IMG/VR virus record: IMGVR_UViG_3300040816_000489
Span: 1-28,354 of that record
Reading direction: 5' to 3' (one strand)
Source of the DNA: a virus
Taxonomy: Duplodnaviria > Caudoviricetes
DNA length: 28,354 nucleotides
Made by a program: the position numbers and the translations under genes
Shown here: piece by piece, positions 9,791 to 28,106 of the stretch
Position numbering within the stretch: position 1 is the stretch's first letter
How the letters are laid out: each line of letters begins with the position of its first letter
Notes under the pieces: generated by a model
The model's input: the letters and a program-made list of their open reading frames with translations, nothing else
Told to the model about the DNA's origin: nothing
Database searches by the model: none

Positions 9791-12700
9791 ATGGCGGATA
9801 TTAAAAACTTTGGTATCAAAGGTATATCGTCAGACGTTCAAATGGGTAAAAGTGGCGGTCGTTTAAAGTACGATGCTAGTAATAACCGATTTGATCTAAC
9901 TCAATCAGATGGCTCAACACTAGAAGACATACGTTTTGGTAGTGTAACATCAGGTAGTTGGACAGCAACGTCTATAGGCGCACAATACGGTGGTACTGGC
10001 CAAGACTTTAGTTCCTCTACAGGTATAGTTACATTTTCTAGCGGTACAGCAAGTGCTGGTAATATTTCATTAAGTGATTCAACTTTAATTGATAGTACTA
10101 GTCAACTTCCAGTAGAACAGGGTGGTACAGGGGCAACTTCAGCCTCAGGTGCCAGAACTGCGTTAGGATTAGGTAACATTGCAACTCAGGCTTCAAACAG
10201 TATAGATATTGATGGCGGCGCCATTGATGGAACTGCTATTGGTGCCAATAGTGCAAGTACTATTGTAGGAACAACAATAACAGCAAATTCCGGCTTTACA
10301 GGAAATTTAACAGGTGTGGCAGATGACGCAGATGGTCTTTCATCAGCGGTTACTGTAGCATTAACTGGCGACATTACTGGAAGTGCAACTTTCCAAGACG
10401 CTGGTGATACTGCATCTATCACAACCACATTACCTACTGTTAATAGTAATACAGGTTCATTTGGTAGTTCAAGTGCTATTCCAGTAATTACTGTTAATGC
10501 TAAAGGGCAAATCACAGCAGTTACTACTGCGGCAACTTCAAGTGTATTAACAATCGGTGCTGATAATGGCAGTGATGATACTGTAACAGTTGGAACAGAT
10601 ACCCTTAACTTTGTAGGTACAAGTAACGAAATAGAAACAACAGTTAGTGATAACCAAATTCAAATTGGTTTACCTGATGACGTAACAATAGGTAATAACC
10701 TAAGTGTTACAGGTAGTTTCTTATCAGATGATATTACTTCTAGTGCGATTAGCATTGCAGGTGATGCCACAATTACTGGTAACTTAACAGTACAAGGTAC
10801 GCAAACTGTAATTGAATCAACAACCGTACAAACTGAAGATGCAATCTTCAGAGTAAACAGTAACGGTGCAGACACTGATGCTGGGTTTGAAGCAAATGCA
10901 AACGGTGTAATCAAACAAATCCTTTACACATCAGTTGGTGATGAGTGGGACTTTGGTTCAGAAAATGTTAAGGCTTCATCTTTTGAAGGTGACTTAACAG
11001 GTGATGTAACTGGTGATGTAACTGGTACAGTTAGCAGTATTGCTAACCATAACACTGGTAATTTAAGTGAAGGGTCAAACCTTTATTATACAACTGCAAG
11101 AGCAAATAGTGCCATAGATGCATATATTAGTGGCGACACTGGTATTACTGTAACAAGTGGTGCAATTGACCTAGATGATACTGCGGTAACTCCAGGAGCA
11201 TATGGTAGTTCTACAGCAGTTCCTACTTTTACAGTAGATCAGCAAGGTAGAATCACAGCGGCTGGTACAGCAAGTATCTCTACTTCACTAACAATCCAAT
11301 CAGACGATGCGGCGGATAACGTTGTAGCATTAGCAACTGATAAGTTGAAGTTATTAGGTGGTAACAACATTACTACTTCTAACTCAGCGGATGATGTTAC
11401 GATTACACTAGATAGTACACTAACAGGCTTAACAGCAGTTACAGCCTCAGGTGCTATTACTGGTGGTAGTCTTACTGACGGTACAGCAACAATGACAGGT
11501 GGAGCCCTTACTGGCTTAACTGGTGCATTAACTACATCAGGAACTGTAACAGGTGGTACATTAACTGACGGTACATTAAGTATTAATTCTGGTAATATTA
11601 CATCAGGTGTAAATGCAACATTTAGTGGTGCAGTTGAAGGCGGCAGTTTAACTGACGGTACTTTAACAGCAACAAGTGGTGCTATTACTGGTGCAACTAA
11701 CATTACTGGTTCAGGTACATTAACTGGTGGAACATTAACTGACGGTACTGCTTCTATGAGCAGTGGTGCTTTAACAGGCGTAACAAATGTTACTGCTTCA
11801 GGCACAGTACAGTTTGGTTCATTAAGTGACGGTTCAATCACTGTTACTGCATTCGTTGATGAGGACAATATGGCATCAGATAGTGCTACATTGATTCCTA
11901 CACAACAATCAGTTAAAGCATACGTTGATGCTTCAGTTGGTGCGGCAACATTAAATGTTGACGGTGATTCAACTACAGGATCAATTGATCTTGATAGTGC
12001 TAACTTAGGTATCCTAGGCACAAGCAATGAAATTACAACTAGCATGTCTGGTGGTAATCTTACTATTGCATTAGCAGATTCAGTAAGTGGTCTAACAAGT
12101 GTTAGTGCTACAACAATTACTGATGGTACTGCTTCTTTGAGTGCAGGTGCTCTAACAGGTGTTACTAGTATTGCTACATCAGGTGATGTAACAGTTGGTG
12201 GTAACTTAACTGTAAGTGGTTCAACAACAAGTGTAAACTCAACTAACACAACTATTGAAGATACATTACTTGTTTTACAATCAGGCTTAACTGGTGCTAA
12301 CCCTAACGATATCGGTCTTATCCTTGAAAGAGGTTCAGATGGCGATAACGGATTCTTAGGTTGGGATCAGAGTGAAGATAGATTCATGGCGGCTACAACA
12401 ACTGCTGATGGTTCAGGTACAGGTGACTTGACACTAACAGCGGCTGATTTTGAAGCGGCAGGGTTGATTGGTACAAGTGCTACAATCAGTGGTGCAGTAA
12501 GTTTTGGTACATTAACAGACTCAGGTGAGAGCATTGCTGTTACTAAGTTTGTTGATGAAGCAGATGGCATTAGCAATAATGACAATGATACTACTATTCC
12601 AACTTCAGCGGCAGTTATTGACTACGTTGAAAACAATGGTGGTGACGGCCTCTTATTAAGAGCGTCATTTACTGCGGACAGTAGTGCAACTACTTTTGAC

Positions 12701-13015
12701 ATTGGTACTGTGCCAAACGTTGCAGGTAGAACTTACTATGCTGAAAAGATTGTATTTAAAGTAAGTACAGCATTTAGTGGTGGTTCATTTAACCATATTC
12801 TTGTTAAAGAAAATGGCGGTTCAGGTAATACAATAGTAGCGGCGGTTGACGCAGATGCATCAACTCTCGGTTCATACATTGTAGAACTTGATGGTGATGA
12901 TACACTAACTAAGAATGCTAGTGTACAAGTTCAATTCATGCAGGCAGATGGTAGCACACCGGCTACAACAACTTCTGGTGTAATGGTTGCAAGTGTACAT
13001 TACAATTATGTATAA
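9791..13015 (+). CDS. long virion fibre / structural protein with internal repeats
   Basis: 1074 aa, very T/S/G/D-rich. Shares ITVxxxGxIT fibre modules with the 4820 ORF; GGTG and GDLTGDVTG motifs typical of phage fibres. Confidence 0.8.
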   Translation: MADIKNFGIKGISSDVQMGKSGGRLKYDASNNRFDLTQSDGSTLEDIRFGSVTSGSWTATSIGAQYGGTGQDFSSSTGIVTFSSGTASAGNISLSDSTLIDSTSQLPVEQGGTGATSASGARTALGLGNIATQASNSIDIDGGAIDGTAIGANSASTIVGTTITANSGFTGNLTGVADDADGLSSAVTVALTGDITGSATFQDAGDTASITTTLPTVNSNTGSFGSSSAIPVITVNAKGQITAVTTAATSSVLTIGADNGSDDTVTVGTDTLNFVGTSNEIETTVSDNQIQIGLPDDVTIGNNLSVTGSFLSDDITSSAISIAGDATITGNLTVQGTQTVIESTTVQTEDAIFRVNSNGADTDAGFEANANGVIKQILYTSVGDEWDFGSENVKASSFEGDLTGDVTGDVTGTVSSIANHNTGNLSEGSNLYYTTARANSAIDAYISGDTGITVTSGAIDLDDTAVTPGAYGSSTAVPTFTVDQQGRITAAGTASISTSLTIQSDDAADNVVALATDKLKLLGGNNITTSNSADDVTITLDSTLTGLTAVTASGAITGGSLTDGTATMTGGALTGLTGALTTSGTVTGGTLTDGTLSINSGNITSGVNATFSGAVEGGSLTDGTLTATSGAITGATNITGSGTLTGGTLTDGTASMSSGALTGVTNVTASGTVQFGSLSDGSITVTAFVDEDNMASDSATLIPTQQSVKAYVDASVGAATLNVDGDSTTGSIDLDSANLGILGTSNEITTSMSGGNLTIALADSVSGLTSVSATTITDGTASLSAGALTGVTSIATSGDVTVGGNLTVSGSTTSVNSTNTTIEDTLLVLQSGLTGANPNDIGLILERGSDGDNGFLGWDQSEDRFMAATTTADGSGTGDLTLTAADFEAAGLIGTSATISGAVSFGTLTDSGESIAVTKFVDEADGISNNDNDTTIPTSAAVIDYVENNGGDGLLLRASFTADSSATTFDIGTVPNVAGRTYYAEKIVFKVSTAFSGGSFNHILVKENGGSGNTIVAAVDADASTLGSYIVELDGDDTLTKNASVQVQFMQADGSTPATTTSGVMVASVHYNYV
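11462..11835 (+). repeat. degenerate tandem repeat of about 29-30 aa (GGxLTDGT...GAxTG) inside the fibre gene
   Basis: ACTGACGGTAC core recurs with 87-90 nt spacing (about 11474, 11564, 11651, 11738), with a degenerate fifth copy (AGTGACGGTTC) at about 11825. Confidence 0.8.
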
Positions 13016-13034
13016 TAGTTAGCAATGACTCTAT

Positions 13035-13058
13035 AGGGCTCTTAGGAGCCCTTTTTTT
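13035..13058 (+). terminator. Rho-independent terminator ending the structural operon
   Basis: AGGGCTC-ttag-GAGCCCT followed by TTTTTT. Confidence 0.9.
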
Positions 13059-13060
13059 AT

Positions 13061-13068
13061 GATAAATA
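13061..13068 (+). promoter_or_regulatory. putative late promoter (GATAAATA) driving the riboswitch transcript
   Basis: Lies directly after the terminator and is followed by the perfect hairpin ATGTAACA-gcaa-TGTTACAT (13072-13091). Confidence 0.65.
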
Positions 13069-13089
13069 AATATGTAACAGCAATGTTAC

Positions 13090-13137
13090 ATCGTTCATCT
13101 CGAAAGAGACGGAAGTAGTCATAAGACGAAGGAACGC
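13090..13137 (+). ncRNA. glutamine riboswitch aptamer 1 (glnA RNA motif)
   Basis: P1 CGTTC/GAACG, P2 TCTC-gaaa-GAGA, junction CGGAAGTA, P3 GTC-ataa-GAC, GAAG E-loop strand and trailing C. Matches the three-way-junction/E-loop architecture of glnA aptamers as I recall it. Confidence 0.85.
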
Positions 13138-13141
13138 CGAA

Positions 13142-13202
13142 ATCGTTCATTCACTCTAAATGTAGCAGTGAACGGAAGTAGGTAATAGTACCGAAGGAAC
13201 GC
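13142..13202 (+). ncRNA. glutamine riboswitch aptamer 2 (glnA RNA motif, tandem copy)
   Basis: Same invariant blocks (ATCGTTCAT, ACGGAAGTAG, CGAAGGAACGC) with different but still paired stems: P2 TTCACT...AGTGAA, P3 GGTA-atag-TACC. Confidence 0.85.
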
Positions 13203-13223
13203 ATCTTTGTAAAAGGAGATGAC

Positions 13224-13385
13224 ATGACTAAGTATCAAATAGCACAATTCAAACGTGCAGTGAAACGTGATTTGTCCAAAAAATTCAGCAAGCCTGAAAA
13301 TAAGTTATCTAGTGTAAGATATAATTTCCCCAGAGAACCTGAGAGAAGTTTACCTGACTACATAGCAAATAACCCTTGGTATTAA
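13224..13385 (+). CDS. 53-aa small protein downstream of the tandem riboswitch
   Basis: MTKYQIAQFKRAVKRDLSKKFSKPENKLSSVRYNFPREPERSLPDYIANNPWY*. SD AAGGAG at 13213-13218, terminator right after the stop. Below the ORF-track cut-off. Confidence 0.8.
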   Translation: MTKYQIAQFKRAVKRDLSKKFSKPENKLSSVRYNFPREPERSLPDYIANNPWY

Positions 13386-13391
13386 TCAATT

Positions 13392-13410
13392 AAGGGGCTA
13401 CGGCCCCTTT
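13392..13410. terminator. hairpin terminator between convergent genes (possibly bidirectional)
   Basis: AAGGGGC-tacg-GCCCCTTT with a cUACGg tetraloop. Overlaps the stop codon of the minus-strand ORF. Confidence 0.75.
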
Positions 13411-13973
13411 CTATCACTTACAAGAAAACTTAAACACAATAATTGCGTATCTACCATACTTTGATTCGGAGTGAATCCCCATGGGATATGTGAAGGCCAA
13501 AATATATATTTAAAGTTTCTAGGTGCTACTGAAAAGTTTCGTTTTTGTGTTCTATGTCTATCTGCATAAGTTCTAATAGAGAAATCTTCTAAGTATAAAT
13601 GACTACCTTTATTAGTAGATTGTAGCCAACAGCACCCATTGTACCATCTACATGATTCCATGTTTATAGGATAACTATGATCTGGTTTTATACTTACTAT
13701 ATATGGGTTTAGTATGTCTACTTCTGTTTTAACATCTAAGAATTGTTTCTTTGCATGGTTTATAAATGTATTCCCCATTAGAAATGCTAGTTGTTGAAAT
13801 GAATTTTCTAAAGGTATTTCTCTATCTGTAATAGACCCAAAGTTCATTTTTTGAGCCTTGCCTGAGTCTAAATCTTTTATTAAGTCTTTTCGTAATGTAT
13901 TTTTAATAGTACTATCTATTTGTAATGTGCCTTCAAATACATAATTAGGGAATAAATTTATTGTTTTTGCCAT
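13398..13973 (-). CDS. 2OG-Fe(II) oxygenase-fold protein (TIGR02466-like), metal ligands apparently lost
   Basis: N-terminal NLFPNYV and C-terminal YIFWPSHIPWGFTPNQS...LSF echo the LFPT.../FPSWLxHxVxPN...RxSxSFN pattern. Start reassigned to the ATG at 13973 (MAKTINLF). Confidence 0.55.
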   Translation of the reverse strand: MAKTINLFPNYVFEGTLQIDSTIKNTLRKDLIKDLDSGKAQKMNFGSITDREIPLENSFQQLAFLMGNTFINHAKKQFLDVKTEVDILNPYIVSIKPDHSYPINMESCRWYNGCCWLQSTNKGSHLYLEDFSIRTYADRHRTQKRNFSVAPRNFKYIFWPSHIPWGFTPNQSMVDTQLLCLSFLVSDRKGP

Positions 13974-25346: not shown

Positions 25347-25823
25347 ATGGAAAAATTACATTATTCATTCATAGATTTACAAAAAGACCTAAATAGTATC
25401 ATACAACAAATGGTAGTTGATGGTTTTAAACCCGATGTTATTATAGGTCCTGGCAGAGGAGGATTTATTCCAGGAGTTATGCTTAGTCATTATTTTGGTG
25501 CTCCTTTTGAAGGTATTAGATGGCAACAACGTGATGGTAATATCAAAGATGATAAAACTTTGAAACATATTATGCAAAAACATATGGGCGATAATATTTT
25601 GGTTATTGATGATATAAACGATACTGGTACAACATTAAAATCAATATTTGAAATTATTAATACTGAAATAGAAAGTCCTGCAAGTAGAATAGACGATGTT
25701 AGGTGTGCTACATTATTTTCCAAGGCTCAAAGTAACTTTGGCGGCGTAGATTATATTGGTAGAGAACTAACACCCGAAAATGATCCATGGGTTGTTTTTC
25801 CTTATGAGGAGTGGTGGAAGTGA
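25347..25823 (+). CDS. type I phosphoribosyltransferase (xanthine/guanine PRT-like)
   Basis: GPGRGG, PRPP-binding loop ILVIDDINDTGTT, C-terminal WVVFPYE as in Gpt-type enzymes. Confidence 0.88.
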   Translation: MEKLHYSFIDLQKDLNSIIQQMVVDGFKPDVIIGPGRGGFIPGVMLSHYFGAPFEGIRWQQRDGNIKDDKTLKHIMQKHMGDNILVIDDINDTGTTLKSIFEIINTEIESPASRIDDVRCATLFSKAQSNFGGVDYIGRELTPENDPWVVFPYEEWWK

Positions 25824-26059
25824 GTACGGTACAAAGTCTTACAAATCATTTAAAACATTTAGAAGACATACACCGAGAACTAGATAAAAAGATCACAAGG
25901 CATTGGGAACATCATGATAGTGATGAAAAAATAAAGAAAGAGAAGTTTGAAAAACTTGCTCTAAAAAGAGAAATAGAAGAACTAAAAGAAAGAATAGAAC
26001 AAAAGGACATCCACGTCCATAACTCGGAGAAACAAGATGGAAACAAGCAAGAAGATTAA
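25820..26059 (+). CDS. DUF465/YdcH-like small coiled-coil protein
   Basis: LEDIHRELDKKI...KKEKFEKLALKREI. GTG start at 25820 with SD GAGGAG, overlapping the upstream TGA. Confidence 0.6.
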   Translation: MSTVQSLTNHLKHLEDIHRELDKKITRHWEHHDSDEKIKKEKFEKLALKREIEELKERIEQKDIHVHNSEKQDGNKQED

Positions 26060-26726
26060 ACAACGATTGCAAGAAGCCGGTGATAGGTTTTGGGCAGGAG
26101 ATAATATTTCTGCACACATTAAAGAGGGAGAAAAGCAACAACTAATCGACGAACTTGCAATTAAGTTTGAAGATGTATTACAAGGACTTGTAATTGATAC
26201 TGAGAATGACCCTAACAGTAACGACACAGGTAGGCGTCTAGCAAAGATGTATATCAACGAACTAATGGCTGGTAGGTATGAGCCTATGCCTAATGCAACT
26301 GCTTTCCCGAATGACAGTGATGATAGATACGAAGGTATGTTAGTAGTAAGAAGTGAACTTACAAGTATGTGTTCGCATCATCATCAAATAGTTAGAGGTG
26401 TAGCATATATTGGTATTATTGCCGCAGACAAATTAATTGGACTAAGTAAATACACAAGAATTGCACAATGGTGTGCAATGCGTGGAACACTACAAGAAGA
26501 ACTTGCTAACGACATTGTTAGAGAGATTCAAAAGGCCACAGGTGCCGAACATTTAGGTGTGTATGTACAGGCTACACATGGTTGCGTTGAGAACAGAGGT
26601 GTTAAGGCACATAGCAGTCTTACACAAACAACTGTTCTTAAAGGTGCGTTCAAAGATGACGCAGGTACAAAGAAAGAGTTTATGGATAACATTAAACTAC
26701 AACAACAATATTCCTGCGATAAGTAA
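26037..26726 (+). CDS. folE: GTP cyclohydrolase I
   Basis: SMCSHHH zinc motif, GLSKYTR, LQEEL, ATHGCVENRGV. Confidence 0.95.
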   Translation: METSKKIKQRLQEAGDRFWAGDNISAHIKEGEKQQLIDELAIKFEDVLQGLVIDTENDPNSNDTGRRLAKMYINELMAGRYEPMPNATAFPNDSDDRYEGMLVVRSELTSMCSHHHQIVRGVAYIGIIAADKLIGLSKYTRIAQWCAMRGTLQEELANDIVREIQKATGAEHLGVYVQATHGCVENRGVKAHSSLTQTTVLKGAFKDDAGTKKEFMDNIKLQQQYSCDK

Positions 26727-27226
26727 TGATTGCTAATAGAAACGGCCATTTGATATACGGTAAACGTGCTGTCTTAATAAGAGATGTTACTGAATCTGTA
26801 TGTGATAGAAAGAAAATGGATTGGTTAACTCAAAGATTTCCATTAGCAGAACATGAAGTTTTTGAGTGTATTGATTGTATTGCTGACTTAGAAGACTTAG
26901 GTCCAGGTGAACATTTAAAATTAAATAATGCTGGTGATGAACAAGATGTACAATTAGAAACAATTAGTATCTCAGATACAATTTTTCTAAAACTTATACA
27001 GTTTGGTAGAATATATAATCCGGAATGTACTGATATAGATTTATTATTTGATCAAGGTTTTAAAGTTGCATCTATAGAAGTATTTGAAGATTTAGTAGCA
27101 GGACATAGTAATTTTGAAAATTCAGAATTGCATTCTCAAGTGTATAGTGCATACAAAAGATGTCTAGGAAATACTATAGAGAATCATGTTATGTTAAATT
27201 TATTAAAGGAATCAAATGACACTTAA
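26726..27226 (+). CDS. hypothetical protein
   Basis: 166 aa between folE and queE with overlaps at both ends. No motif recognised. Confidence 0.7.
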   Translation: MIANRNGHLIYGKRAVLIRDVTESVCDRKKMDWLTQRFPLAEHEVFECIDCIADLEDLGPGEHLKLNNAGDEQDVQLETISISDTIFLKLIQFGRIYNPECTDIDLLFDQGFKVASIEVFEDLVAGHSNFENSELHSQVYSAYKRCLGNTIENHVMLNLLKESNDT

Positions 27227-28106
27227 ATACAGCGAAACATTTTATTCTGCACAAGGAGAAGGCCAATATGTTGGTATCCCTAGTTTGTGGATGAGATTTT
27301 TCCTATGTAATTTACAATGTAATGGATTTGGACAAAGTGATCCAACCGATCCAAGCACATATGATTTACCTTATGAAAAGTTAGATATCACAGACATAAC
27401 AAATGTATTTGATTTGCCTGTGTTTGAAAAAGGTTGTGATAGCAGTTATACTTGGAGTAAGAAATACAAACACTTAATAACAGATAAGACGGTAGAGGAG
27501 GCTGTAGACGAACTTACGGCACTTCTACCGCACTCTCAATTTGTACATCCTGCTACAGGGCAAAGTGTACATATGGTGTTTACAGGCGGCGAGCCAATGC
27601 TTAAAAACACACAGCCTGGTATGATGCAAGTTATAGAAGAATTTAAACGCAGAAACAATCAACCTATGAATGTTACTGTAGAAACAAATGGCACAAAGCC
27701 TATCACAGACGAGTTTGCTGAATACATACAACGTGAATATCCAGCATGGGCTAATGGTTCTGAATGGTACTGGAGTCTAAGTCCTAAACTGTGGAGTACT
27801 GCTGGTGAGAAGAATAAGAAAGCAATCAAGCCAGAAGTAATTGGTAGATATGCAGAAGTTAGTCCACATGGTCAACTTAAATTTGTAGTAAATGGAACAG
27901 AAGAGAGTTGGCGTGAAGTAGAAGAACATACAAAACTATTTAGAGATGCCGGCTGTAACTTCCCTGTATGGATTATGGGAGTTGGCGGCACATTTGAAGG
28001 CTTAGTACAAACTGAAGCCACAATAGCCGATGAGGCAATACAACGTGGATATAATTATACTAGCAGAGTCCACGTACACATATATGGAAATGCAATAGGA
28101 AAATAA
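27216..28106 (+). CDS. queE: 7-carboxy-7-deazaguanine synthase (radical SAM)
   Basis: SETFYSAQGEG, CNLQC...GCDS, FTGGEP, VETNGT, LSPK, RVHVHIYG. Confidence 0.9.
   Translation: MTLKYSETFYSAQGEGQYVGIPSLWMRFFLCNLQCNGFGQSDPTDPSTYDLPYEKLDITDITNVFDLPVFEKGCDSSYTWSKKYKHLITDKTVEEAVDELTALLPHSQFVHPATGQSVHMVFTGGEPMLKNTQPGMMQVIEEFKRRNNQPMNVTVETNGTKPITDEFAEYIQREYPAWANGSEWYWSLSPKLWSTAGEKNKKAIKPEVIGRYAEVSPHGQLKFVVNGTEESWREVEEHTKLFRDAGCNFPVWIMGVGGTFEGLVQTEATIADEAIQRGYNYTSRVHVHIYGNAIGK

Follow-up and report, generated by a model that had tools for sequence, protein, structure and literature searches.

The window, as we call the whole 28,354-nt stretch of viral DNA analysed here (IMG/VR record IMGVR_UViG_3300040816_000489), harbours an accessory, mobile stand-alone cassette in which tandem glutamine-I riboswitch aptamers precede the gene of a 53-aa basic protein, a payload that is swappable with a DUF4278 protein. 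Judging from its conservation and codon changes, the small ORF is a real coding gene family under protein-level selection. We tentatively propose, with somewhat less than even confidence, that the cassette is switched ON by glutamine late in infection and that its protein acts as a brake on nitrogen assimilation by the host, with type II glutamine synthetase (GS II) as the likeliest target. All parts of the cassette that a first-pass annotation had delineated were recovered in place when the sequence was re-read, folded and compared with Rfam.

Architecture of the cassette

The upstream neighbour is a long tail-type gene (9791-13015) with an intrinsic terminator (13035..13059, + strand) detected by a terminator scan that called five terminator-like sites in the window versus 1.3 +/- 1.2 in shuffled sequence. 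Directly after it lies GATAAATA (13061..13068, +), a T4-late-like motif and a variant of the TATAAATA-like element that stands ahead of late genes in T4-type phages. All five copies of GATAAATA in the window are intergenic, in the 4.2% of bases that lie between genes, and sit 31-163 nt upstream of a gene; three of the five precede virion or tail genes, and the replication genes carry TTGAC-17-TA[TC]AAT sites instead. This distribution, which lends support to the late-type promoter of the first-pass annotation, suggests that GATAAATA is probably a late promoter of this phage. The sequence TAAATA precedes 39 of 40 family cassettes against a background of 2.8%. Between promoter and aptamers the minimum free energy fold forms a 5' stem-loop with a GCAA loop (13072..13091, +), which is probably RNA-stabilising and optional in relatives; this interval holds a hairpin in 38 of 73 loci.

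At the 3' end the proposed terminator stood in part: a strong GC-rich hairpin (13392..13412, no strand assigned, -12.2 kcal/mol) is predicted between the small ORF and a convergent 2OG-Fe(II) oxygenase-like gene, but its T tail is short and the terminator scanner did not call it. A fold of -8 kcal/mol or lower follows the ORF in 72 of 73 loci, a count without a shuffled control. Parts of the region are contained in six RNA-library runs, all as assembled, strandless contigs. One mismatch-free contig, in a single run, spans 13216-13379 of the ORF stretch; three of the remaining runs have contigs without ORF coverage, and two extend just into the first or last bases of the ORF; contig gaps of this kind are no evidence. 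In five RNA runs from four studies, contigs of the upstream gene end at 13025-13037, and in two DNA runs they extend to 13118, a weak hint that fits a terminator upstream of the cassette.

The whole window contains two Rfam matches, both to the glutamine-I (glnA) model RF01739. Aptamer 1 (13090..13140, +) scores 60.8 bits (E 2.5e-11) and aptamer 2 (13142..13205, +) 60.3 bits (E 3.6e-11), each over model positions 1-53 and against a gathering score of 35, so that the tandem glutamine riboswitch claimed at first reading passed the covariance-model check. The two copies share their junction sequences and differ in their P2/P3 stems, again as had been described, and by analogy with their class they would bind glutamine. 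The stretch 13141-13181, in the region of aptamer 2, matches aptamer 1 of a SAR86 chromosomal cassette at all 41 nt. The accompanying statement that riboswitches are rare in phages has to be dropped for this class: glutamine riboswitches are not rare in marine viral contigs and occur in about 620 IMG/VR stretches, an estimate extrapolated from 13 of 64 parts.

The expression platform is a 7-bp hairpin (13202..13221, +) that begins at C13202, the conserved C after P1 that in RF01739 opens a helix burying the Shine-Dalgarno (SD) sequence, here 13214-13219. Its energy of -5.0 kcal/mol falls to -2.4 without the first C-G pair. Among 22 distinct family linkers, 21 form a stem of at least 5 bp from this C, and stem positions 2-7 are occupied by several pair types, a covariation that supports the hairpin reported at first pass; across viruses such a stem occurs in 75 of 99 distinct linkers versus 14% after shuffling. 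When both P1 stems are enforced and C13202 is withdrawn, the cost of opening the segment from SD to AUG drops from 5.2 to 2.9 kcal/mol and the SD stays mostly paired; with P1 left free, withdrawal of C13202 does not open the SD in the folding model, because the model refolds. In the gifB leader of Synechocystis PCC 6803, SD release is postulated to occur via a G23-C60 pair, and the Synechocystis glutamine switch is reported to be ON in vivo (PMC6212724). The earlier suggestion of ribosome-binding-site release through the conserved C matches this published model and agrees with covariation and folding. By analogy, glutamine would very probably turn translation ON by weakening the SD hairpin.

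The protein family and its carriers

The ORF (13224..13385, +) encodes a protein with a pI of 10.1 and a GRAVY of -1.18, and no transmembrane segment. Its first 27 residues contain 9 K/R and 2 D/E, which bears out the basic N-terminal half noted earlier. The family shares a plan of N-terminal helix (residues 3-22), variable linker and conserved C-terminal LPxYIxxNP[FWY]Y motif. In the AlphaFold2 model (47-row alignment, pTM 0.35) helix 3-22 is predicted with confidence, the linker with little, and the chain closes in a short C-terminal turn. M1, T2 and the P, Y, N, P and Y of the C-terminal motif are invariant, with synonymous codon changes at P, Y and N of that motif; the uncorrected pN/pS, computed from non-independent pairs, is lower in the final 11 codons (0.28) than in the helix (0.62). 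The protein matches nothing in Pfam, PHROGs or NCBIfam and has no usable match in the ESM Atlas. The sole PDB profile-search match, yeast Slu7, has an E of 0.51 and was judged to be chance.

A family profile retrieved 140 proteins among 492 candidates; nine weak loci (L136-L144), which match only the C-terminal 16-17 residues, were excluded. All of the first 11 viral loci carry two aptamers, a count that includes near-copies and one identical locus. When metagenomes were searched by protein alone and 7 of the 80 loci were dropped for a short flank, 71 of the remaining 73 had two aptamer ends, one had one and one had none; TAAATA was present in 67 of them. The homologue search that the first-pass annotation had called for thus yields a conserved, unnamed family that travels with the same tandem leader. 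Among 8000 scored proteins no longer, fused form was found, the one match being a gene call extended upstream through the leader, and GenBank phages contain neither a relative of the peptide nor of the tandem leader.

The family is one of several behind such switches. Viral aptamers lead 132 distinct ORFs of at least 20 aa (27-81 aa long, all net basic), in a set restricted to clusters with an SD and ATG within 50 nt and drawn partly from a second scan aimed at the 53-aa family. DUF4278 is matched by 21 of the 132, 10 of them above the cut-off. At least five other unnamed small basic families (28-65 aa) follow viral glnA aptamers behind TAAATA promoters (L012-L131). In a Porticoccaceae MAG (L342:2168-2347, +), tandem aptamers lead a 60-aa triple-YRG peptide, one stretch of which is near-identical to the SAR86 PII T-loop.

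The 28-kb record encodes DnaJ, a Clp-type ATPase, lysozyme, tail genes, PolB and folE/queE-like genes. The best PolB matches, compared by identity and without a tree, are Phosso (47%), 2.275.O (44%), and Atu_ph07 and PBECO4 (43%), whose genomes measure 320-490 kb. Related contigs reach 250-322 kb, and the phage looks like a marine jumbo myovirus, perhaps of the Atu_ph07/PBECO4 kind. The window also encodes a histone H1-like Hc1 protein (PF07432, 22996-23175) and a PRTase, folE and queE-like cluster (25347-28106), which we take to suggest 7-deazaguanine DNA modification. A 336-aa antisense ORF (11239-12249, -) within a repetitive 1074-aa gene is probably a shadow of repeat codons.

The mobility of the cassette is apparent from synteny. 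Eighty loci were anchored on the downstream HAD-like gene. The upstream tail gene is visible in 30 of them, and, near-copies included, the aptamer cassette is present in 15 of these 30 and absent from 15. Fourteen of the 15 cassettes hold the 53-aa family and one (L573), behind tandem aptamers, a triple-YRG protein with a DUF4278 score of 37.5 bits. The same protein occurs at L094, whose leader shares 79 exact nt with that of the window. The family cassette also occupies sites behind T4-like major head genes and in the neighbourhood of regA, helicase and tail sheath genes.

The cellular copies recovered all come from SAR86 genomes, where tandem aptamers precede the same kind of ORF amid ordinary chromosomal genes. 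Twelve of 266 SAR86-order genomes match the family (seven strongly, one cut by a contig end and four by weak hits to a divergent peptide). These cassettes adjoin no nitrogen genes and their promoters, read by eye, are sigma70-like and not late-type; in all five tested carriers the sole aptamers above cut-off are those leading the family peptide. The family was not found in 187 genomes of another marine order, that of G267 (labelled Pelagibacteraceae), or in 399 further scored genomes of the class sample. The host of the phage is somewhat more probably of SAR86 type than not, and SAR86 phages have been predicted (PMC5332604; bioRxiv 10.64898/2026.03.20.713316). In an unrooted tree of 56 columns, however, the SAR86 peptides fall into a single small clade amid phage copies of far greater diversity, and the nearest kin of the window protein lie outside it, which counts against a simple host origin. 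A cyanobacterial host is less likely, because the longest exact cellular match outside SAR86-like loci and one proteobacterial MAG is 16 nt, versus 41 nt for SAR86. RF01739 has also been reported within SAR86 deletions (PMC12379486). Two more SAR86-like chromosomal peptides of 53-54 aa lie behind tandem aptamers (L386, L394-L396, L285); they have a basic N-terminal part and an aromatic tail unlike that of the window family.

Candidate targets in host nitrogen control

A GS II-like enzyme is encoded by 226 of the 266 SAR86-order genomes (E 1e-50 or better, below the GlnII cut-off), and type I GlnA exceeds its cut-off in seven. Most of these genomes (G001-G266) encode a GS II of eukaryote type, about 323-336 aa long. 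GlnE was found in 0 of the 266, which are incomplete genomes, and in 3 of 14 controls. GS II is generally not adenylylated, so a lack of GlnE would be expected whether or not an inhibitor exists. GlnD and two PII genes, one of which adjoins an amt-like gene, are present in all five SAR86 cassette carriers examined. The gene behind the aptamer is glnII itself in another SAR86 branch (13 of 35 among the matches listed); in marine heterotrophs glnII, amt and gltB/D likewise follow the aptamer (amt and glt identified by eye from their translations), which is therefore a nitrogen-regulon element in these organisms. In G215, glnII adjoins an ntrB-like gene.

On the mechanism that we favour, the late promoter would yield an mRNA of about 340 nt between the two terminators, as motif placement suggests. 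Without glutamine, hairpin 13202-13221 would hide the SD; glutamine binding would pull C13202 into a long-range G-C pair and so weaken the hairpin, as the gifB model, covariation and folding indicate. At high glutamine a basic helix and a conserved aromatic tail on a loose linker would thus be made. This protein would bind a host nitrogen enzyme, most likely GS II in a host that lacks GlnE, and act like the cyanobacterial inactivating factors IF7/IF17 without being their homologue, sparing ATP and glutamate that virion production needs. The idea of a nitrogen-linked effector is plausible and is indirectly supported by the SAR86 copies, in an order without GlnE hits, and by a DUF4278 protein, from the family of the N-terminal domain of IF17, that takes the same phage slot. 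In addition, GS-binding small proteins are known from several phyla (PMC10651883), 27 of 121 family proteins retain the DUF4278-type YRG motif, and the SAR86 order combines the missing GlnE with a widespread GS II-like enzyme. Several observations weigh against such a brake. The large majority of SAR86-order genomes do without the cassette, as do half of the syntenic phages, and the SAR86 copies lie away from nitrogen genes. There is no IF7-like profile similarity, none of 40 family ORFs hits DUF4278, and the window protein lacks YRG; moreover, IF17 reportedly does not need its DUF4278 part to inhibit GS (PMC6316151). RNA coverage of the ORF amounts to one contig, and the modelled shift keeps the SD mostly paired. 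When the peptide was co-folded with two copies of SAR86 GS II, without folded controls, the scores were 0.01, 0.59 and 0.00, which weigh on neither side. We consider it an even call whether the target lies in nitrogen assimilation, and glutamine synthetase itself is a rather doubtful candidate.

The same switch could instead serve a family that mimics the PII T-loop or regulates the PII circuit, plugging AmtB or decoying GlnD at high glutamine. The YRG consensus of aptamer-led peptides, [LG]xYRG[VA]xY, resembles the SAR86 PII T-loop LYRGSEY, the L342 peptide contains LYRGAEYQVD, the hosts possess the PII, GlnD and amt-like genes described above, and YRG persists in the minority of family members just mentioned. 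DUF4278-type peptides may indeed be T-loop mimics, whose three repeats would match the AmtB trimer; the literature searched, partly judged by listing, contains no description of such mimicry. Yet YRG is absent from the window protein and 94 of its 121 relatives, the invariant residues sit in the termini and the likeness is at motif level, which makes a PII target unlikely for the family as a whole. To an action on phage development, through lysis timing, late translation or nucleic-acid binding that tunes burst or lysis to host nitrogen, we assign a similarly low probability. It would suit the late-type promoter, the strongly basic helix, the position of the cassette next to capsid and tail genes in phages of two types and a phage diversity of the family far above its host diversity, and lysis control has been speculated upon for the phage Melnitz (PMC9004378). 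Support for lysis timing is limited to that speculation, the protein has no transmembrane segment, its payload position is interchangeable with DUF4278, and intact SAR86 chromosomal copies stand behind promoters that by eye are sigma70-like.

The phage copy might also be a decoy or activator that counters a host regulator or stabilises GS, so that nitrogen keeps flowing to virions. High glutamine benefits the phage, activation of GS by a small protein is described in Methanosarcina (PMC10651883), and the first five residues of the SAR86 peptide recur at the start of GS II from the same clade. An end-product-induced activator makes poor regulatory sense, though, both conserved termini are common to phage and host copies and the five-residue match may be chance; this alternative is thus improbable. 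The shared start is seen in G215, between GS II (L404:1198-2166, -) and the peptide (L392:1501-1638, -), and may be chance or a recombination relic; in the clade with aptamer-led glnII, GS II starts differently. Hardly more credible is a nitrogen sink or neutral passenger without specific target, or an RNA that is itself the functional product. The uniformly basic character of all 132 aptamer-led viral ORFs, their several unrelated families and the patchy distribution would fit, but the C-terminal P, Y, N, P and Y are invariant despite synonymous codon change, the SD hairpin is conserved and the promoter has been exchanged for the phage type. Returning to the GS II brake, it can be combined with T-loop mimicry in one scheme that we regard as unlikely in its entirety: marine phages of multiple lineages would carry glutamine-gated mini-proteins that usurp host nitrogen control, the 53-aa family being the first protein regulator of type II GS, in place of the missing GlnE in SAR86, and its YRG-bearing DUF4278 slot-mates being PII T-loop mimics.

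Relation to known glutamine switches

The closest parallel is the gifB/IF17 leader of Synechocystis PCC 6803, which has the same aptamer class, an SD-burying helix that starts from the conserved C and a small basic protein downstream (PMC6212724). In contrast to it, the window leader is tandem, phage-borne and driven by a late-type promoter, its protein is neither IF17 nor DUF4278, and the cellular relatives of the family are heterotrophic SAR86 with GS II. Like IF7, IF17 and DUF4278 proteins, the family is small, basic, largely unstructured and nitrogen-regulated (PMC6316151). It differs from IF7/IF17 in having no profile similarity, no three-arginine pattern and GS II as the likely host enzyme, and the DUF4278 YRGxxY motif is present in 27 of 121 relatives and absent from the window protein. 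Identity with IF17/DUF4278 (PF14105) was rejected, since 0 of 40 family ORFs match at E 0.1. Identity with IF7 (gifA) fared no better: in an hhalign comparison with 15 cyanobacterial proteins that follow the aptamer, share three invariant arginines and are taken here to be IF7-like, the probability was 0.2%. In many cyanobacteria the glnA aptamer leads such three-arginine proteins and not gifB alone (L266, L277, L284, L310, L313, L316, L331, L337, L338, L349, L375 and others), and these too are presumably IF7-like.

Tandem glnA RNAs have long been known, as have the short ORFs of 17-100 aa and no known family that follow the glutamine-linked Downstream-peptide motif (Weinberg 2010, PMC2864571). 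Unlike the window ORF, the latter follow the type 2 motif in cyanobacteria, and the accessible parts of that paper mention no phage or SAR86 family. The 53-aa family and a phage regulator of GS are not described in the literature searched, which consisted mostly of listings and did not extend to supplements or subscription papers. Until now the module of a glutamine riboswitch followed by a small basic protein was thought to be cyanobacterial; it is now common to an uncultured heterotroph and at least two phage lineages and has been rewired to a phage late promoter. If the protein regulates GS II or the PII/AmtB circuit, the module would show how streamlined bacteria without GlnE stop nitrogen assimilation, and it would be the first metabolite-sensing switch of a phage with a defined host target.

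The presence of a glutamine riboswitch in a phage is no novelty in itself, as such switches have been published, cyanophages included (PMC9004378, PMC9964418, PMC9602691). RF01739 is reported in the marine myophages Melnitz (OM43), Mosig (SAR11), AG-345-P14 and S-CREM1, and the switches of the Melnitz/Mosig type are described as controlling ssrA (PMC9004378, PMC9964418). These four phages, unlike the window, have single aptamers and other peptide families. Melnitz and Mosig resemble it in the order of aptamer, SD and small basic ORF (32 aa and 51 aa, respectively). In Melnitz (MZ577097.1, L469) the aptamer (706-754) follows the tmRNA matches (281-698) and is succeeded by an SD hairpin and by a basic ORF of 32 aa, unannotated on that strand (706-875); in Mosig (MT647606.1, L470:710-935) it lies directly before a 51-aa hypothetical basic protein. 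Because the Melnitz aptamer follows the tmRNA and precedes the 32-aa ORF, its published ssrA assignment looks misplaced. The layout would reassign the likely target of this switch, for which cultured OM43 and SAR11 phage-host pairs exist.
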